Sequence record: MK562505
Strand: one strand, 5' to 3'
From: Shigella phage Silverhawkium
Length of the DNA: 64,000 nt
This document shows positions 22,931-60,989 of this stretch, one piece after another (positions within the stretch are counted from its first letter, which is position 1; the number at the start of each line of letters is the position of its first letter). The translations under genes and the position numbers were made by a program. The notes beneath the pieces were generated by a model that was not told the DNA's origin, ran no database searches, and saw nothing but the letters and a program-made list of their open reading frames with translations.

Positions 22931-23734
22931 TTACTGCTCAGTAGCTTGTGAGTTTTCACGTTCAGCCATTGCATCAAGCTGTTCACAGAACTCTTCACCA
23001 AAAGTAATTGCAATCTTTTCACGTACAATTGCTGCACCTGTCTGGGTGAACACTTCATAAAGCGCACCTACACTTGCACCTCCAGACATTTCTTCTACAA
23101 AGCTTGGTTCAGCATCGAGAATTTTTGATACCTCTAAAAGAGCATGGATACCCATCACACTAATCACAGCAGACAGGATTGACGTCAGTTTAATCTGACT
23201 AGTATCAATACCTGCTACAGACTCTGACGCTGCAACTTGCTCAAGTTTCTGCACTGAAGACTTAGCATACTCTTTAGCAACATCAGAGATGGCATCATAC
23301 CCCCAATCCAGCTTTTGATAGCGAGGTGAATGGTCATTCATGCGTTTCTCAAGAGAGGCCATCACAGCAGCAACTGGTGCTACAGTGGCATTTACCAGTT
23401 CTTCTTCGCTCATCTTGTCAAGCTCTTTTAAACCAGCCTCTGTGATTGCATTGTAACCACCTGCATACATCTCATTAAAGATGTACTCAGCAAAAGTGTC
23501 AAGGCCAATTACAATGGACTGTAAAGCGGCTTTACGATTGTCAAGCAAGAACTTAACCTCGTTTCGGAATTTCTCATCAGAGTCTACACCAGCCCCATCT
23601 GGACGGAGTGAGTCTGGGATTACTTTTCCAGACAGTGAATTACTACGCATAACTACAGCAAGTGTCTCCACTGTGTTAAGCAGGAAGTTCTCATTGATAC
23701 CTTTTTCAAGCAACACTTCATTTACAGTTTTCAT
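22931..23734 (-). CDS. hypothetical protein (267 aa); first 37 codons lie in a duplicated segment
   Basis: ORF; no recognisable motif. Confidence 0.45.
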   Translation of the reverse strand: MKTVNEVLLEKGINENFLLNTVETLAVVMRSNSLSGKVIPDSLRPDGAGVDSDEKFRNEVKFLLDNRKAALQSIVIGLDTFAEYIFNEMYAGGYNAITEAGLKELDKMSEEELVNATVAPVAAVMASLEKRMNDHSPRYQKLDWGYDAISDVAKEYAKSSVQKLEQVAASESVAGIDTSQIKLTSILSAVISVMGIHALLEVSKILDAEPSFVEEMSGGASVGALYEVFTQTGAAIVREKIAITFGEEFCEQLDAMAERENSQATEQ

Positions 23735-23877
23735 TTTTAATCTCTCTCATTTTTCCAGACAGTGAATTACTACGCATAACTACAGCAAGTGTCTCCACTG
23801 TGTTAAGCAGGAAGTTCTCATTGATACCTTTTTCAAGCAACACTTCATTTACAGTTTTCATTTTTAATCTCTCTCAT
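23624..23877. repeat. perfect 127-bp direct tandem duplication (23624-23750 and 23751-23877)
   Basis: base-by-base identity of the two copies; covers the 3' end of the upstream gene and the RBS/start plus 37 codons of the downstream gene. Confidence 0.9.
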
Positions 23878-27986: not shown

Positions 27987-28232
27987 ATGTTAAAATTATT
28001 GATACCAGCTTTAGCAGTCATACTGGTTGGGTGCAACCCTTCTTATGAGAATAAGGATGCTTCTTACAGACTTCCTCCAGAAATGCAAGACTGCAAGATT
28101 TATAAACTTAATGGTGATGCCATTAGCAGGGATGTTATTGTAGTTCGCTGCCCAAATTCTCAGACTACAACTTCTTACAAGTATGGAAAGAATAGTCAGT
28201 CACACACTACAGTTTTTGATGGAGGATATTGA
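27987..28232 (+). CDS. putative lipoprotein
   Basis: 81 aa; signal peptide ending in lipobox LVGC (MLKLLIPALAVILVGC). Confidence 0.5.
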   Translation: MLKLLIPALAVILVGCNPSYENKDASYRLPPEMQDCKIYKLNGDAISRDVIVVRCPNSQTTTSYKYGKNSQSHTTVFDGGY

Positions 28233-28233
28233 T

Positions 28234-28437
28234 ATGCAGGTTCTGGTAAACTTTATCTATAAGTATGAAAACATCTTCAGCACTATGACTGAAGGTCAAC
28301 GCAATCCAGTTATCCCACGAGAAGGGGATACTGTTGAGATTAATGATTGGAACCACAGAGTTGCAGGGGTCAAGCATAAACTTAAAGATGATTATGACCA
28401 CCAAGTTGTAAATGTGTATTTAGAAGGTAAGTGGTAA
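28234..28437 (+). CDS. hypothetical protein (67 aa)
   Basis: ATG 1 nt after the lipoprotein stop, GGAGG RBS. Confidence 0.4.
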   Translation: MQVLVNFIYKYENIFSTMTEGQRNPVIPREGDTVEINDWNHRVAGVKHKLKDDYDHQVVNVYLEGKW

Positions 28438-28531
28438 TGAGAATCTTACATATCATCTCTGAAGATTTTGGAGGGTGCTCTTGGCACTCATTTTTCACAA
28501 AAGGTTGTCTAGCTTGTGAGGCACGTAATAA

Positions 28532-29632
28532 ATGACAATTCTGTACAAACAAAATAAAGATGGCTCTTTTAACGTCTGGTCATGTGTTGCTGTAGGTGAC
28601 AAAGTCGTCACAACTTATGGTAAAGAAAATGGCAAGATGATGTTTGAAGAGTACACAGCAGAACCTAAGAACATCGGTAAAAAGAATGAGCGTAATGCTG
28701 AACAGCAAGCTCTCTTTGAAGTTGCTGCTAAGTACAAGAAGCAGGTTGACCGTAAAGGGTATGCTTACACAAAATCTGAAGCAGAGAATGTTGAAAAGGT
28801 TGGTGTACAGCTTGCTCAGGATGCTTCCAAGATAAGTCACAAGAAGTATCTGGTATTCCCTGCCGATGCTCAACCTAAACTTGACGGGGTTCGTTGCAGG
28901 ATTTCAAGAGATGCTGACTCAGAAAGTTTTACAGCATATTCTCGTGAGAACACGGTATACAACATTCCTGTAGAGTTGATTCCTGATGTTCTTCTTATGC
29001 TGAAGCTTCATAAAGATGTTGAAGATTTCGACGGTGAGATTTATGCTCATGGTTGGGACTTGGAAGATATTGTGTCTATGATTAAGAATGCTGACAATCC
29101 AGACCGTCACCTTCTTAAATTCTACTGGTATGATATCTGTGACAAGACTAAATCTTGGCCTGAGCGTCGTGAAGTTATTGATAATTCACCAATCGTTGAA
29201 CTCGGTGATGCTTGCAGGGTTGTACCTGTTCAGACAATCCGTGTTAACTCTTGGGAAGAATTTGATAATGCTCATGACAATTGGGTTAAACTCAAGTTTG
29301 AAGGGGCAATGTATCGGTCAATCTCACCAGATTCGTTCTATGAGTGTGGTCACCGTTCGTACTTCTTGATTAAACACAAGAAGATGCACACGCAGGAGTT
29401 CATAGTAACTGCTGTCAAGACTGATAAACGTGGTCACGGTAAGTTCGTTGTAGAGACCCTTCCTAACGTCTTTGTAGATGTTTCATGGAAAACTACCCAT
29501 GAGAAGAAGCAGCATCTTGCTGAACATCCTGAAGAGTTTATCGGGAAGCCTTTAACGGTTCAGTTCCAGAAGATGACTCGTAAGGGGTCTTTACAGTTCC
29601 CTGTTGGGCTTGTTATACGAGATTATGAATAG
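28532..29632 (+). CDS. ATP-dependent DNA ligase
   Basis: 366 aa; adenylation motif I KLDGVR. Confidence 0.8.
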   Translation: MTILYKQNKDGSFNVWSCVAVGDKVVTTYGKENGKMMFEEYTAEPKNIGKKNERNAEQQALFEVAAKYKKQVDRKGYAYTKSEAENVEKVGVQLAQDASKISHKKYLVFPADAQPKLDGVRCRISRDADSESFTAYSRENTVYNIPVELIPDVLLMLKLHKDVEDFDGEIYAHGWDLEDIVSMIKNADNPDRHLLKFYWYDICDKTKSWPERREVIDNSPIVELGDACRVVPVQTIRVNSWEEFDNAHDNWVKLKFEGAMYRSISPDSFYECGHRSYFLIKHKKMHTQEFIVTAVKTDKRGHGKFVVETLPNVFVDVSWKTTHEKKQHLAEHPEEFIGKPLTVQFQKMTRKGSLQFPVGLVIRDYE

Positions 29633-29640
29633 AGGTTAGC

Positions 29641-29790
29641 ATGTTTAGCGCAATTATCCTGTTTGTTTTTGTTGTTTTATCATTATCTTACTTCATAAGT
29701 AAACTGATAAGCATAACATACAAATCAGCCTTAGCCCTTACTCTGTTATCATTTGTAGTAAATGCAGTAGTCAGAGAATTTTTAATATAA
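29641..29790 (+). CDS. small hydrophobic membrane protein (49 aa), absent from the ORF track
   Basis: hand translation MFSAIILFVFVVLSLSYFISKLISITYKSALALTLLSFVVNAVVREFLI; GAGG RBS. Confidence 0.35.
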   Translation: MFSAIILFVFVVLSLSYFISKLISITYKSALALTLLSFVVNAVVREFLI

Positions 29791-29795
29791 AGTTG

Positions 29796-29823
29796 TTGAC
29801 ATAGAAAATTTGGTGAGTATACT
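29796..29823 (+). promoter_or_regulatory. sigma70-like promoter (-35 TTGACA, -10 TATACT)
   Basis: consensus hexamers with 16-nt spacer; transcript would run into the repeat modules. Confidence 0.55.
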
Positions 29824-29854
29824 GAGCAGCATAAACCAACGGGTACTCACCAGC

Positions 29855-30111
29855 ATCACTTAAGAGTCTTTGAAAAGGATTTTTAAGTGATATTTGGTAT
29901 GGTATGGTACGGTTCGGTGGTGTATGGTTTGGTTCGGTGGTGTAAGGTGTGGTCCGGTAAAGTATGGGTAGTTAGTCTCAGCTACATTAAAATGAGACTT
30001 ACCTTTTTAAAAGGTCTTGAAGAGGGTCTTTTAATAAGGTAGGGTAAGGTTAGGTAAGGTATGGTTGGGTTAGGTATGGGTGGATGGTAGTAGCCACGTT
30101 AAAAATCTACC
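29855..30111 (+). repeat. noncoding modular repeat region 1: two units of hairpin + phased GGTNN array + hairpin
   Basis: hairpin atcacttaa/ttaagtgat (29855-29891); 15 in-phase pentamers (29896-29970); hairpin agtctc/gagact (29974-29999); second array (30038-30088); hairpin ggtag/ctacc (30086-30111); no ORF of 60 aa or more. Confidence 0.8.
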
Positions 30112-30169
30112 AAGTTTCTAAAGAGTCTTCTGTTGAGGGTTCTTTATAAACAACTTAACAATAAACTAA

Positions 30170-30775
<606 letters not shown>

Positions 30776-30777
30776 TT

Positions 30778-31218
30778 ATGAATACAAAAGCATTAGCAGC
30801 AAAGTTTAGTTACGGTGATACTGTATCACACTCTGAGATGGACACCTTCTTAGGTATTGAGAAGCCAACTTATCAAGGTAACATTGTTAAGTACGAAGAT
30901 GAAATGAAGGCTTACGCGCTTACACGCCTAAATCGACTTGAGAAGTTTATTGAGAAGCTTCTTAAAGAAGAGAAGATTTATCTGGTTGCTTCAATGGGTG
31001 TTGGTTATCGCGTGGTTGAACCCAAACATCAAGCAACTATTGCAAAACGTAAAATGTCTAGTAAGATTGGTCGTGCTTTAAAGCAAGCCACTCAAGCGAT
31101 TGAGAATGTGAACACTATGGCACTGAGTCATCAAGAACGTTCACGACTGATTGAACAGCAAAACCATTTAGCTGCCATGAAAGCTAACATTAACAAACAA
31201 CGTAGAAAGCCTTTCTAA
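30778..31218 (+). CDS. hypothetical protein (146 aa) with basic C-terminus
   Basis: ORF 3 nt after the previous stop; C-terminus NINKQRRKPF. Confidence 0.5.
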   Translation: MNTKALAAKFSYGDTVSHSEMDTFLGIEKPTYQGNIVKYEDEMKAYALTRLNRLEKFIEKLLKEEKIYLVASMGVGYRVVEPKHQATIAKRKMSSKIGRALKQATQAIENVNTMALSHQERSRLIEQQNHLAAMKANINKQRRKPF

Positions 31219-31229
31219 GTTGATTAGGT

Positions 31230-31252
31230 AGCCTCTTCGGAGGCTCCTTTTT
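31230..31252 (+). terminator. rho-independent terminator after the cassette
   Basis: AGCCTC-ttcg-GAGGCT followed by a T-run. Confidence 0.6.
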
Positions 31253-31253
31253 A

Positions 31254-31512
31254 AAAGGTCTTTAAAAGGGTCTTTTAATAAGGCTCGGCAATGTTCGGCA
31301 TGGTCTGGTATAGTCCGGTGCTGTTCGGCGTGGTAAGGTGAGGTATGGGTAGTTAATCGGAGCTACATAAAAATTCGATTACATCACTTAAGAGTCTTTG
31401 AAAAGGGTTTTTAAGTGAGGTTTGGCTCAGTATGGTTATGTGTGGTGATGTGTGGTTCTGTAAGGTCATGTTTGGTATGGAAGGATGGCAGTAGCCTTAT
31501 AAAAAATCTGCC
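31254..31512 (+). repeat. noncoding modular repeat region 2: same module family as region 1 in a different order
   Basis: arrays at 31282-31351 and 31424-31488; hairpins aatcg/cgatt (31355-31380), atcacttaa/ttaagtga (31383-31418), ggcag/ctgcc (31487-31512). Confidence 0.8.
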
Positions 31513-31531
31513 AAATAAGCTATAAAATCTG

Positions 31532-31560
31532 TTGACAAGTCAGGTGTTATAGCTTATTTT
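31532..31560 (+). promoter_or_regulatory. candidate sigma70-like promoter (-35 TTGACA, 17-nt spacer, -10 TATTTT)
   Basis: upstream of the secreted-protein gene; TATACT also present further downstream. Confidence 0.35.
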
Positions 31561-31600
31561 TATACTCAAATGTATACAAAATTTTATATAGGAGGTAGTT

Positions 31601-31981
31601 ATGAAAAAGTTACTTGTTGGTGTCATTGCTCTTGGTATGAGTTTTAGTGCAGTGGCTATGAAGATGCCTGAAGCAAACTTTAGTGGTGTTGCTTTAGAAT
31701 CTTGTAAGATTGTACAGAAAATTGCATCAAATGCTGGAGAGTTAACTAAACCGTTGTCTGCTACGACTGTTCAAGAAATGACTGATAAGATGGTTGACTA
31801 CAACTACCATTTTATGGGAGATTACTATGACAGATTAGCAGATGAGATGGTCACTCAGAACGTTGACCTTCTTGATAGTAAAGGTATTGAGACTGTAGAA
31901 GATGTGAAAGACAACTTTATGCGTGAGTCTTTCAAAGGTGTTCAATACTTTATTGAAAATCGTCACTGCATGGGTTTATAA
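31601..31981 (+). CDS. putative secreted/periplasmic protein
   Basis: 126 aa; N-terminal signal peptide MKKLLVGVIALGMSFSAVA; AGGAGG RBS. Confidence 0.5.
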   Translation: MKKLLVGVIALGMSFSAVAMKMPEANFSGVALESCKIVQKIASNAGELTKPLSATTVQEMTDKMVDYNYHFMGDYYDRLADEMVTQNVDLLDSKGIETVEDVKDNFMRESFKGVQYFIENRHCMGL

Positions 31982-31983
31982 TC

Positions 31984-32187
31984 ATGAAGAAGAACATCTG
32001 TAGAACAGACTATGGTGAAGTGGTCGATGATGACGGAGTAGTTATTTACAGAGTTTGGGCTAATGATTTTGCAACCGTTGTAGAGTCTTTAGATAACTAC
32101 ATCAATGGGACTCGTGAAAACGTCAGAGCAACTAATCTTGATTCGTTAATCGACACTTCCAGAAAACGGAGAAAGAAAGATGAATGA
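31984..32187 (+). CDS. hypothetical protein (67 aa)
   Basis: ORF overlapping the next gene by 8 nt. Confidence 0.4.
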   Translation: MKKNICRTDYGEVVDDDGVVIYRVWANDFATVVESLDNYINGTRENVRATNLDSLIDTSRKRRKKDE

Positions 32188-32479
32188 GGTTTTTGACCCT
32201 TATGCTCCACAAGATGATTGGGAGGCAAATAGAGAGGCTGAAATGGAAAGCTATATCTGTCCAATGGATGTTGAAGAAATGAGAGAGTTCGTTTCTTACA
32301 GATTCAGAAAAGAGATTGAGAAGCGAAAGTACTCTCAAGCACAAGTTGCAAAGATTTGTGAAATATCTCAAGCAAGAGTCTCGAACATCATTAATGAAAA
32401 TGGTAAAGTAACTCTCGAATACATGCTCAGGGCATGTGAAAAACTAGGTGTAAATTTTAACTTAAGGCTGGCAGACTAA
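32180..32479 (+). CDS. helix-turn-helix DNA-binding protein (XRE-like)
   Basis: 99 aa; SQAQVAKICEISQARVSNIIN fits an HTH motif. Confidence 0.5.
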   Translation: MNEVFDPYAPQDDWEANREAEMESYICPMDVEEMREFVSYRFRKEIEKRKYSQAQVAKICEISQARVSNIINENGKVTLEYMLRACEKLGVNFNLRLAD

Positions 32480-32480
32480 T

Positions 32481-32840
32481 ATGAAAACTCAAAATGCAAT
32501 CTTCAATGACAACTTTGCTCTTGGATTTTATGGTAAACCTACAAGAGTTGAGAAATCGTTTGGTGAAGAACTCTTATCTGTTTTGAAGAGTATGTACAAA
32601 GATGGTAAGATAAAACACACTGAAAAGAAGCGAATCGCTGGATACATGACGATTGGCTCTGCTATCTCAAACATTAAACTTGAAACAACATGTGCTCATG
32701 ATGTTCGCAACAAGTTTATAAAGGAACTTTTTGACAACATTGATGGTGTTTCTGTGAAAGCTATCTGGTTAAATGTTGATGGTACTAACTACACAACATT
32801 CACTTTCAAAAACGAGGATATCAAATGTCTCTTCCCATAA
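32481..32840 (+). CDS. hypothetical protein (119 aa)
   Basis: ORF. Confidence 0.4.
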   Translation: MKTQNAIFNDNFALGFYGKPTRVEKSFGEELLSVLKSMYKDGKIKHTEKKRIAGYMTIGSAISNIKLETTCAHDVRNKFIKELFDNIDGVSVKAIWLNVDGTNYTTFTFKNEDIKCLFP

Positions 32841-33328
32841 AAATAAACTTAGTCTTTGGATTTAACGTTCTAAAGGGTCAAATACTGAGTCTCCCAAAGT
32901 CACCTTATCGCACTGATAAGGGTTCAGTGAAACGTGCTGCACACTATAACAACAATTTAGGTGCTTTGCAGTCTCTATATGAGTGGCTTGATGAGGATGG
33001 AAGACTCAATGAATACCTTCATCAACTTAATTTGACATTGGAAGAGGGCAATATGGTTTATAACCACCTTCCACAACTTTACACGCCAATGTCACCAACT
33101 CAGCAAAACTGGAATGAACGTGCTTTAGATGGGTATAGCACAATTACACACTCGAAAAGTCTGGACAGCACACCTGAGTACAGGAAACTCAGAGAGATTA
33201 TCTACCAAACTATAGGTAAGAGAGTTTCAAAAGGGCTTGGTTACAAAGAAAAGGTTGACTGGAATACACAAAAGTGTATAAAATTCTACTCATTTGATAA
33301 TGAGAAGCAGACATTTATAGAGGTTTAA
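32825..33328 (+). CDS. hypothetical protein (167 aa)
   Basis: ORF. Confidence 0.4.
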   Translation: MSLPIKINLVFGFNVLKGQILSLPKSPYRTDKGSVKRAAHYNNNLGALQSLYEWLDEDGRLNEYLHQLNLTLEEGNMVYNHLPQLYTPMSPTQQNWNERALDGYSTITHSKSLDSTPEYRKLREIIYQTIGKRVSKGLGYKEKVDWNTQKCIKFYSFDNEKQTFIEV

Positions 33329-59451: not shown

Positions 59452-59512
59452 ATAAAAAAGCCCTGTCTAAAAATACTCTCCGGTAGCGAAAGGGAGAATA
59501 CTCATAGCAGGG
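59452..59512 (-). terminator. long structured rho-independent terminator ending the tRNA array
   Basis: outer stem GCCCTG/CAGGGC with inner CTCC/GGAG stem, then minus-strand T-run. Confidence 0.5.
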
Positions 59513-59545
59513 CATATAATAACTTTGAGAGAGATATTATTAAAT

Positions 59546-59621
59546 TGGAGTATCGGAAGGGACTCGAACCCTCATAAACCTGTTTTGCAGACAGGAACAT
59601 ATCCATTTCTGTCACCGATAC
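59546..59621 (-). tRNA. tRNA-Cys (anticodon GCA)
   Basis: manual cloverleaf; anticodon loop CTGCAAA; T-loop TTCGAGT; CCA encoded. Confidence 0.7.
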
Positions 59622-59627
59622 ATAATT

Positions 59628-59720
59628 TGGAGGAAGATACCAGACTTGAACTGGTACGCCGATTTCTCGGTTACTGGCAGTTTAGCAAACTGCTCCCTTA
59701 CCTGTTAGGGTTAATCTTCC
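59628..59720 (-). tRNA. tRNA-Ser (anticodon GCT), long variable arm
   Basis: anticodon loop TTGCTAA; type II variable arm; T-loop TTCAAGT. Confidence 0.65.
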
Positions 59721-59722
59721 AG

Positions 59723-60457
59723 TTATTTGTTAAGTGCATCTTTCATTTCTGGTGTAGAGATAGAGTCAATAACACCAGTCTTACAAGCATCATCAAACCA
59801 GTCTGGTAAGACATTTGCAAGAAAACCGTTAATGTTTGTCTTAAGATACTCAGCCATCAATGCTACTTCATCAGCAATCATCTGTGTGACTTCTGAAGCG
59901 TATGCAGTAATCTTTGACATACCTTCATTAATCGCTGTAACAGCTTGTGAGGCTAAATCTTCGATTGTATCAAGCCCTTGGTCAATTGCATCTTGTAAGT
60001 CGCTTAGAACGCCGTTTACAGCGTCTATGGAGGTGTTTATAATCTCCATAGCTTTGTTACCATACTCAGTAGCAACTCCCATAATCCCACTGAATGGCGT
60101 ACAACCAACTTGTTCACCTGCTGCTCCCATTACATTAGAGTAGCCTTTTGCCACCTGCATTCGTTGAGAGAACTCATCTACAGATTTCTGACCATACTCA
60201 GTCAGTGTAGTGGTTGTTGAAGTTGTACTGCCAAGACTTGTTGTGAAGCTACTTAAGAGTGCTGCTGTTAATCCAGCCGCAATAAGCTTATCTTGCACAG
60301 TCGGGTCTGTTACGGAACTAATAGAGTTTACTAATGACTGAGAGGCAGCAATTGTACCACCAAGGACTGCTGCACCAGTAATAAGAGGGTTTGAGAAACC
60401 ATTACCAGTTTTAAGGAGATTAAAAATCTCTTTACTTTGTTCTGTCATCTCTTTCAT
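59723..60457 (-). CDS. membrane protein embedded in the tRNA array
   Basis: 245 aa from MKEMTEQ (TAGGTG RBS); two hydrophobic segments, Ser/Thr-rich stretch, acidic helical C-terminal domain. Confidence 0.5.
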   Translation of the reverse strand: MKEMTEQSKEIFNLLKTGNGFSNPLITGAAVLGGTIAASQSLVNSISSVTDPTVQDKLIAAGLTAALLSSFTTSLGSTTSTTTTLTEYGQKSVDEFSQRMQVAKGYSNVMGAAGEQVGCTPFSGIMGVATEYGNKAMEIINTSIDAVNGVLSDLQDAIDQGLDTIEDLASQAVTAINEGMSKITAYASEVTQMIADEVALMAEYLKTNINGFLANVLPDWFDDACKTGVIDSISTPEMKDALNK

Positions 60458-60473
60458 TATGCACCTATAAAGT

Positions 60474-60546
60474 TGGTAGCCCATCGGGATTTGAACCCTG
60501 TTCTCATGTTTTTCAGACAAGCGCTTTAACCATATAAGCTAATTGA
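60474..60546 (-). tRNA. tRNA-like element, isotype unresolved (possibly aberrant)
   Basis: acceptor pairing and TTCAAAT T-loop present; no canonical anticodon stem or D-stem found. Confidence 0.3.
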
Positions 60547-60547
60547 G

Positions 60548-60624
60548 CTATTAAATTGGGGTGACCTACGGGAATCGAACCCGTATAGACCATGTTCACA
60601 GCATGGGTCATTATCCATTTATGA
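60548..60624 (-). tRNA. tRNA-His (anticodon GTG)
   Basis: anticodon stem CCATG/CATGG, loop CTGTGAA; T-loop TTCGATT. Confidence 0.7.
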
Positions 60625-60664
60625 TAAGGCCACATTTAAGGACTCTCGTAAGAACCCTTAGAAG

Positions 60665-60740
60665 TGGCAGCAGTATAAGGATTTGAACCTTAATCTTTCA
60701 GCTTCAGAGGCTGGAGCATTGCCAGTTATGCTATACTGCT
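60665..60740 (-). tRNA. tRNA-Gln (anticodon CTG)
   Basis: anticodon loop CTCTGAA with one stem mismatch; T-arm TAAGG/CCTTA. Confidence 0.55.
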
Positions 60741-60746
60741 AATATT

Positions 60747-60817
60747 TGGTACTCCATATCGGATTCGAACCGATACATAACACAGATTTTAAATCTGGCC
60801 TCTCTGCCAATTGGAGT
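60747..60817 (-). tRNA. short tRNA-like gene, anticodon unresolved (possibly TAA)
   Basis: good acceptor and T-arm (ATCGG-TTCGAAT-CCGAT); anticodon region folds non-canonically. Confidence 0.4.
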
Positions 60818-60827
60818 AATGGAGCCT

Positions 60828-60903
60828 TGGCGGGGGATGATGGAATTGAACCATCTTCTTCGATTTCAAAGACCGAGGTTTTAACCTTGTAAACTAATCC
60901 CCT
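60828..60903 (-). tRNA. tRNA-Gln (anticodon TTG)
   Basis: anticodon stem TCGGT/ATCGA, loop CTTTGAA; A1-C72 mismatch. Confidence 0.6.
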
Positions 60904-60911
60904 ATTAAATT

Positions 60912-60988
60912 TGGTGCAGAATAGAGGATTCGAACCCCTAACAAACAACTTCGTAGATTGCTGTTCTATCCATTTGAACTAATTCTGC
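60912..60988 (-). tRNA. tRNA-Arg (anticodon ACG)
   Basis: perfect acceptor GCAGAAT/ATTCTGC; anticodon loop CTACGAA. Confidence 0.6.
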
Positions 60989-60989
60989 A

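Follow-up and report, generated by a model that had tools for sequence, protein, structure and literature searches.

A pentamer-repeat region of a FelixO1-like phage as the very probable downstream guide-RNA array of a type II VIPR system

VIPR (Viral Interference Programmable Repeat) was first described in 2026 in two preprints from one group (bioRxiv 10.64898/2026.04.26.720920 and 10.64898/2026.04.26.720927), the text of which presents it as CRISPR-related RNA-guided DNA silencing used by phages against rival genetic elements and describes Vipr as a minimal RAMP protein. According to the same text, phage SUSP1 makes four vrRNAs of ~100 nt, of which one lies upstream and three lie downstream of vipr-vap1 (the second gene is named vap1 in 10.64898/2026.04.26.720920), and a vrRNA consists of 9–16 YNNGG repeats and an invariant 3′ tail whose pseudoknot was predicted by covariation and seen by cryo-EM. 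The SUSP1 vrRNAs are stated to co-purify with Vipr and to silence matching DNA; in the SUSP1 clade, 18 of the 20 guides with an identifiable target hit an E. coli phage satellite, and the skipped base is usually the codon wobble position (10.64898/2026.04.26.720920, 10.64898/2026.04.26.720927). Experiments on SUSP1 described in the preprints show that one Vipr protomer sits on each repeat, that the GGY bases are flipped out and gripped by the protein, and that the NN dinucleotides are displayed and pair with double-stranded DNA, with one target base skipped per repeat. The Vipr filament gives rise to an R-loop triplex and to silencing of target transcription, and the natural targets mostly belong to a phage satellite integrated in E. 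coli chromosomes.

The stretch of DNA analysed here, which we call the window, comprises 64,000 nt of Shigella phage Silverhawkium (sequence record MK562505), a FelixO1-like myophage of the subfamily Ounavirinae. The top matches over 30700–32000 were the Shigella phages Sf17, Sf18 and Sf19, and the region under study (31254–31512) is 99.3% identical in Escherichia typing phage 1. This region is intergenic, between the ORFs 30778–31218 and 31601–31981, all on the plus strand; a related second gap (29633–30187) comes after the DNA ligase gene. The locus is surrounded by replication genes, with DNA ligase adjoining and DNA polymerase nearby. Away from the locus, the window holds a perfect tandem duplication (23624–23877, two 100% identical copies of 127 bp), situated where gene orientation and GC skew turn from the minus to the plus strand, and a dense cluster of minus-strand tRNA genes (59500–64000), recognisable by repeat families that contain T-arm sequence; the genome of the relative UAB_Phi87 has its ends beside the tRNA cluster.

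The region is almost certainly the downstream guide-RNA array, with two vrRNA genes, of a type II VIPR system, which makes our finding a rediscovery, as the system has been known since April–June 2026. The identification follows from a pentamer consensus that matches the published GGY/NN code, the identity of Vipr and vap1, the covariation of the tails and the predicted target of vrRNA-3; the function of the window's vrRNAs and Vipr is carried over from SUSP1 by analogy. The features that define VIPR were found as follows: a Vipr protein (minimal RAMP/RRM fold, ~20 kDa) is encoded at 30188–30775, with vap1 beside it at 30778–31218; the YNNGG tracts have 14, 8, 13 and 12 repeats, of which the 8 repeats of vrRNA-2 fall below the range of 9–16; the 3′ tails have the hairpin and pseudoknot; and vrRNA-3 has a skipped-base target with the skips at wobble positions and no self-target. 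All public records that we inspected annotate vipr and vap1 as "hypothetical protein", and where they mark the RNAs at all, it is as "repeat_region"; no description of the element is given in the FelixO1 genome paper or in that on three Salmonella biocontrol phages (including UAB_Phi87).

A PDB sequence search with the vipr product matched entry 36pp, "SUSP1 Vipr protein" (E 1.3e-129), and 193 of the 195 residues are identical to SUSP1 Vipr; the gene begins with the ATG at 30188 rather than with the GTG at 30173. The product of vap1, a predicted DNA-binding protein, is identical at 142 of 146 residues to that of the SUSP1 gene in the equivalent position. The two ORFs match phrog_4652 and phrog_5926, respectively, while Pfam and NCBIfam searches with the 200-aa and 146-aa proteins returned nothing. 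The SUSP1 Vipr residues are kept at all 14 positions cited in the structure preprint (H17, K33, R39, E71, M72, K82, G87, K88, R138, C173, 175, D177, W178 and R179). Residue 175 is V both here and in the translated SUSP1 gene but T175 in the text of the structure preprint, where it is placed in the lining of the pyrimidine pocket; the discrepancy may be one of numbering or text.

A repeat search followed by alignment revealed four homologous units, two at 29855–30112 (region 1) and two at 31246–31513 (region 2), each built of a 5′ hairpin, 8–14 pentamers in (G)GY phase and a structured 3′ tail. We infer that these units are vrRNAs (vrRNA-1 to vrRNA-4, Table 1). The locus thus runs from a promoter through two vrRNAs, vipr, vap1 and two further vrRNAs to a terminator-like hairpin that overlaps the next promoter. 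The first promoter is putative, being assigned by its match to the consensus; a 9-nt inverted repeat, 29811–29819 and 29844–29852 (TGGTGAGTA / TACTCACCA), covers its −10 hexamer and start region. The T-run of the terminator-like hairpin that follows vap1 doubles as the 5′ arm of the next Y hairpin. At the far end, to judge from the sequence, 31513–31566 likely combines the end of the vrRNA transcript with the start of the downstream operon. Its 19-nt inverted repeat lies on both sides of the −35 hexamer in the promoter that follows vrRNA-4 and could be a terminator of the vrRNA transcript or an operator.

Table 1 Predicted features of the VIPR locus in the window (X and Y, 5′ hairpin types; P1, P2, Q1 and Q2, 3′ tail types)
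Feature	Position	Strand	Remarks
Putative sigma-70-type promoter, TTGACA-16-TATACT, before the first vrRNA	29796..29823	+	nearly invariant in all relatives
5′ hairpin, type X, before vrRNA-1	29855..29891	+	
vrRNA-1 repeat tract, 14 (G)GY-NN pentamers	29896..29965	+	
vrRNA-1 3′ tail, type P1, pseudoknot GUAG/CUAC + AGUCUCA/UGAGACU	29966..30003	+	
5′ hairpin, type Y, between vrRNA-1 and vrRNA-2	30002..30039	+	
vrRNA-2 repeat tract, 8 GGY-NN pentamers	30038..30077	+	
vrRNA-2 3′ tail, type Q1, GUGG/CCAC + GGUAG/CUACC	30078..30112	+	
vipr, 195 aa	30188..30775	+	PDB 36pp match, SUSP1 identity, phrog_4652
vap1 (vipr-accessory protein), 146 aa	30778..31218	+	SUSP1 same-position gene, phrog_5926
G+C-rich terminator-like hairpin after vap1	31230..31245	+	
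5′ hairpin, type Y, before vrRNA-3; the region under study begins here	31246..31283	+	
vrRNA-3 repeat tract, 13 pentamers	31282..31346	+	one-skipped-base match to satellite gene
vrRNA-3 3′ tail, type P2, GUAG/CUAC + UAAUCGG/UCGAUUA	31347..31382	+	
5′ hairpin, type X, between vrRNA-3 and vrRNA-4	31383..31418	+	
vrRNA-4 repeat tract, 12 pentamers, 5 of them AGT or TGT, not GGY	31419..31478	+	
vrRNA-4 3′ tail, type Q2, AAGG/CCUU + GGCAG/CUGCC	31479..31513	+	
19-nt inverted repeat (89% complementary), then T-run, over the next promoter TTGACA-17-TATTTT	31513..31566	+	

A sequence-only reading of the region had recognised the same parts in both gaps in swapped order (A-B-C-D-E-F versus D-E-C-A-B-F), which corresponds exactly to the arrangement that we found. 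With module X (ATCACTTAAGAGTCTTTGAAAAGGxTTTTTAAGTGA) and module Y (CCTTTTTAAAAGGTCTTxAAxAGGGTCTTTTAATAAGG) at the 5′ ends and P and Q for the 3′ hairpins, region 1 is X-array-P, Y-array-Q and region 2 is Y-array-P, X-array-Q. The variable stems that it cited are present (AGTCTCA/TGAGACT versus TAATCG(G)/(T)CGATTA; GGTAG/CTACC versus GGCAG/CTGCC), and the identical stem ATCACTTAA/TTAAGTGA(T) occurs in both regions. The order is real, but what looked like a "shuffled module pair" is more aptly described as four vrRNA genes in tandem, among which 5′ hairpins and 3′ tails are interchangeable, and the swap probably arose by recombination among tandem, partly identical units. The 5-nt GG(T/C) phase that it saw persisting across the diverged arrays is also genuine: only the intergenic tracts reach at least 7 of 10 "GG" at a 5-nt step, and elsewhere in the 64 kb the minus strand reaches at most 4 of 10 and the plus strand very rarely exceeds 4. 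What was overlooked is that the arrays are the functional core, a GGY scaffold with an NN code in programmable, Vipr-bound guides.

Another question is whether the stems are maintained by selection. Each vrRNA tail, of ~35 nt, is an H-type pseudoknot. Among 15 distinct tails from related phages, aligned without gaps, its ten pairs in two helices are paired in 96.7% of cells and nine of the ten are changed on both sides, although the tails represent four paralogous types and hence few independent compensatory events. No shuffle out of 500 equalled this covariation, and partners slid out of register pair in at most 42%. Stem 1 occurs as GUAG/CUAC, GUGG/CCAC or AAGG/CCUU, and stem 2 as AGUCUC/GAGACU, AAUCGG/YCGAUU, GGUAG/CUACC or GGCAG/CUGCC. 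The two variable hairpin stems noticed earlier are thus stem 2 of the pseudoknot, stem 1 having been missed. The suggestion that compensated stems indicate selection on structure is supported by the tails and, in its preference for RNA, by the G.U pairs of the 5′ hairpin described below; the covariation among tails of related phages speaks against chance agreement between only two copies. A cmscan search of 28000–33000 against Rfam (E up to 10) gave chance-level hits only, none within the vrRNA units.

The identical stem beginning with ATCACTTAA is the outer part of a second structure, a 16–17-bp hairpin of which X and Y are two forms. From 25 distinct sequences, RNAalifold predicted 16 pairs, five of them with compensatory changes. 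At four positions, G.U or U.G is the prevalent or sole pair, so that the hairpin is valid in plus-strand RNA alone and in neither cruciform DNA nor minus-strand RNA. Of the two forms considered in the sequence-only reading, RNA or cruciform, the former is therefore favoured and the latter not; an unexplained cruciform, like the option of a 3′ UTR, becomes superfluous once the units are read as vrRNAs. The hairpin adjoins the preceding tail, its 3′ arm extends into the first repeat, and it appears to divide neighbouring vrRNAs. Because the vrRNAs of ~100 nt given in the preprint text fit the repeats plus tail without the 37-nt hairpin, we suggest that it marks a boundary or a cut in a precursor; it may be a cleavage site, for example for host RNase III. 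The text of the discovery preprint, figures aside, has no mention of RNase, maturation, precursor or stem-loop and uses "hairpin" for the tail only, and the text of the structure preprint, again figures aside, mentions neither RNase nor hairpin.

Comparison of homologous loci from ~30 relatives in three genera (Felixounavirus, Mooglevirus and Suspvirus) separated constant from variable parts. The units always lie on the gene strand, in tandem, with 1 to 3 per region, and hardly any variation is seen in the promoter, 5′ hairpins, tails and downstream promoter region. Between phages, the pentamer tracts have almost nothing in common except the motif [G>A/T, never C]-G-[T>C]-N-N; in 75 distinct arrays from relatives, the consensus was [G 79%, A/T 21%, C 0%][G 98%][T 91%, C 9%] N N. 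Our map of SUSP1, with one unit upstream and three downstream, agrees with the four vrRNAs reported from small-RNA sequencing in the preprint text. In the last vrRNA, the window and SUSP1 share one of 12 NN dinucleotides (the constant final AT), and the third codon positions of vipr are 86% identical; the NN codes have diverged far more than neutral sites. The final AT, constant in nearly all vrRNAs, is probably outside the code.

In vrRNA-4 (31419–31478), AGT and TGT replace GGY almost alternately, and the equivalent last vrRNA of wV8 has the same tendency; such repeats could reflect decay or a tolerated variant of the motif. GGY>AGY was among the motif substitutions tested in SUSP1, and perturbation of GGY abolished silencing, according to the preprint text (10.64898/2026.04.26.720920, 10.64898/2026.04.26.720927). 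By analogy, vrRNA-4 may be weakened, because 5 of its 12 repeats are AGT or TGT.

For target prediction, we located the satellite through its baseplate gene in 474 of 5,426 E. coli genomes. It is an island of ~12 kb with recombinase, tape-measure and baseplate genes (L143–L150, in E. coli chromosomes), occupies three or more sites (yciI-tonB; within a DUF72 gene beside yecD; within mdtG beside lpxL) and is often broken by IS elements. Eight copies were scanned for one-skipped-base matches to all guides. Guides of relatives served as the positive control, and many of them matched the satellite at 88–96% of NN bases, well above their shuffles. The guide of vrRNA-3 (TC AA TC AT CT AT CC GC TC GT AA GA AT) matched L147 9803–9840 and L145 9855–9892 at 22 of 26 NN bases, the first 11 consecutive dinucleotides being perfect. 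The match requires one skipped base: with 0, 2 or 3 skips it was at most 19, and the maximum over 200 shuffles was 20. The site is antisense within a gene of 107–109 aa, over the peptide FTDAGISIDFD, and all 12 skipped bases fall at codon position 3; the mismatched dinucleotides are the two 3′-most ones, including one beside the constant 3′ end. Such agreement makes this satellite gene the likely target of vrRNA-3. The other guides, vrRNA-1, -2 and -4, had no significant match in the eight sampled satellites, and exact gapped-pattern scans with vrRNA-1 (IMG/VR) and vrRNA-4 (IMG/VR and metagenomes) gave zero hits. No guide matches the 64-kb window itself. The eight satellites contained no vipr and no convincing arrays, and blastn of the vrRNA region against the 5,426 E. 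coli genomes, in search of satellites with similar vrRNAs, found no match.

The link between array and protein extends beyond Ounavirinae. A search of IMG/VR with the bare DNA pattern (GGTNN)x6 yielded at least 120 loci, many of them simple microsatellites; dozens are degenerate arrays like those of the window, from unrelated phage contigs of 30% to 73% G+C, and these are intergenic and share the strand of the genes around them. A tblastn search with the 200-aa ORF of the window identified Vipr homologues in 20 array-bearing contigs outside Ounavirinae, adjacent to the array in most of them and on its strand in 19 of the 20. Such an association cannot be produced by the DNA pattern alone. In some IMG/VR loci (L031 824–870, L047, L064, L091 and L100), the array is directly followed by a tRNA T-loop signature (GGTTCGATTCC); ARAGORN called no tRNA at these places in the contigs with such T-loop-like sequence, which may be a tRNA-like 3′ end that replaces the pseudoknot. 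Other contigs (L129, L052, L137, L140, L054 and L141) contain numerous arrays, as many as 16 within 12.6 kb; some of the arrays abut, with "GGCAG" alone between them, and some stand as tandem units with a short conserved spacer (ctctggcgagaaatttttatgc). These are probably the other array architectures mentioned in the preprint text.

These data also bear on the possibility that the locus acts at the level of DNA, as a replication origin, as iterons bound by a phage protein or as a promoter-driven R-loop origin with a G-rich transcript. Its setting among replication genes, with DNA ligase adjoining and DNA polymerase near, the strong promoter that leads into a G-rich tract and the resemblance of phased short repeats beside a small gene to an initiator gene with its iterons would all fit such an element. 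However, GC skew tracks gene orientation and does not single out the site, the G.U pairs of the hairpin are valid in plus-strand RNA alone, and the co-orientation of array and Vipr homologue in 19 of 20 unrelated contigs is left without explanation, as is the match of the NN code to a foreign gene. Moreover, the adjacent protein is a RAMP-family RNA binder whose structure was solved with such RNA. We therefore regard an origin or iterons as very improbable in comparison with guide RNAs.

An equally improbable alternative is a structured non-coding RNA that does not pair with DNA. It might, for example, sequester a host RNA-binding protein as a sponge, or form successive two-tier G-quadruplexes (GGNNN)n. 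Sponge RNAs have a similar layout, with single-stranded repeats between hairpins, GG recurs every 5 nt, and no Rfam family matches. Quadruplexes, however, explain neither the strict pyrimidine at position 3 nor the C-free position 1, and 5 of the 12 repeats of vrRNA-4 (AGT/TGT) lack GG; a sponge leaves unexplained why hypervariable NN dinucleotides match a satellite gene in codon phase, and the cognate binding protein is known and encoded by the phage. The association of array and protein and the PDB match also led us to drop a tRNA 3′-end or anti-Shine-Dalgarno sponge, as well as an antisense Rho site, a RecA hotspot, primase sites and G-quadruplexes; a genome terminus or packaging site was rejected because in UAB_Phi87 the ends, determined by experiment, map to the tRNA cluster instead.

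Units like the vrRNAs are also found apart from the protein. EC6, BPSELC-1, 35FD and one LF82P3 record (loci L021, L019, L020 and L017) have a single region and lack the two-gene cassette. Among the Ounavirinae records, 230 contain vrRNA-like DNA and 117 contain Vipr at ≥90% identity, so about half of the records with vrRNA-like units are without vipr. The vipr-less relatives keep one or two intact "orphan" vrRNAs together with promoter and tail. In the complete 35FD genome (L151, L152), no homologue of vipr or vap was found at E up to 1; of the two vrRNAs of 35FD, one agrees with a satellite gene at 24 of 26 NN bases, and one vrRNA of BPSELC-1 matches the satellite at 25 of 28. Orphan guides might function together with Vipr that a co-infecting phage provides in trans, or they may just be recent deletion products of recombination between flanking repeats; a repeat search of the window identified direct repeats 1528 bp apart.

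The same facts could be taken to mean that the whole region is recombination debris, that is, intergenic sequence duplicated by insertion or deletion of a cassette, with stem covariation by chance: the two-gene cassette is present or absent among relatives with repeats on both sides, the direct repeats 1528 bp apart could mediate deletion, and four tail types alone offer few independent compensatory events. This is the least probable of the readings, given flanks that are nearly invariant over three genera around arrays with a strict 5-nt motif, tail pairing of 96.7% versus at most 42% for slid partners, the recurrence of array plus protein in unrelated phages and the direct experiments in SUSP1 reported in the preprint text (10.64898/2026.04.26.720920, 10.64898/2026.04.26.720927).

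VIPR is a newly reported way in which RNA recognises DNA and, as its discoverers propose in the preprint text, is older than CRISPR (10.64898/2026.04.26.720920, 10.64898/2026.04.26.720927). Its RNA component was visible in the raw sequence, in the 5-nt phase and the compensated stems. The gain for the window is one of annotation, with four vrRNAs, vipr and vap1 placed to the base, and for one guide, vrRNA-3, a gene of an E. coli phage satellite can be named as the likely natural target. Small additions concerning the making and exchange of vrRNAs come from the 5′ hairpins and from relatives that have guides but no vipr. We put forward only tentatively, and with some doubt, that the X/Y hairpin (maybe a release signal) and the orphan vrRNAs of vipr-less relatives are jointly new beyond the preprint text.

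The closest described system is that of SUSP1, which resembles the window in gene order (Vipr 99% and vap1 97% identical), in GGY/NN repeats, tail types, pseudoknot, promoter and flanks, and in the class of target (the E. coli phage satellite) with the rule of one skip at the wobble position. The two differ in the distribution of vrRNAs (2 + 2 in the window versus 1 + 3 in SUSP1) and entirely in the NN codes (one of 12 common in the last vrRNA); unlike SUSP1, the window has an 8-repeat vrRNA, and tail P2 (UAAUCGG/UCGAUUA) occurs in the window and other relatives but not in SUSP1.

In the trp leader RNA of Bacillus, TRAP binds (G/U)AG triplets separated by spacers of 2–3 nt, the oligomer reading one repeat per subunit. 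TRAP sites thus share with vrRNAs a single-stranded tract, a conserved triplet, a period of ~5 nt and one subunit per repeat, whereas the triplet differs, the protein is unrelated, and the spacers, which are uninformative in TRAP sites, are the information in VIPR.

There is also a likeness to the crRNA-Cas7 complexes of class 1 CRISPR: both have an RNA-guided RAMP filament in which each short RNA period is bound by one protomer and has one flipped base, a variable guide capped by a structured conserved handle, tandem guides and rival mobile elements as the target. Repeat search and ORF and family scans of the window found no CRISPR array, no cas1/cas2 and no effector cas genes; in VIPR, unlike CRISPR, there is no spacer-repeat array, and no Cas1/Cas2 acquisition genes accompany the locus. 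The VIPR guide is also non-contiguous, with 2 of every 5 nt pairing and the target skipping 1 of every 3; its period is 5 nt versus 6 in CRISPR; it is encoded by a phage; and its outcome, according to the preprint text, is silencing, not cleavage. The relation between Vipr and CRISPR claimed in that text is one of distant RAMP homology (10.64898/2026.04.26.720920, 10.64898/2026.04.26.720927).
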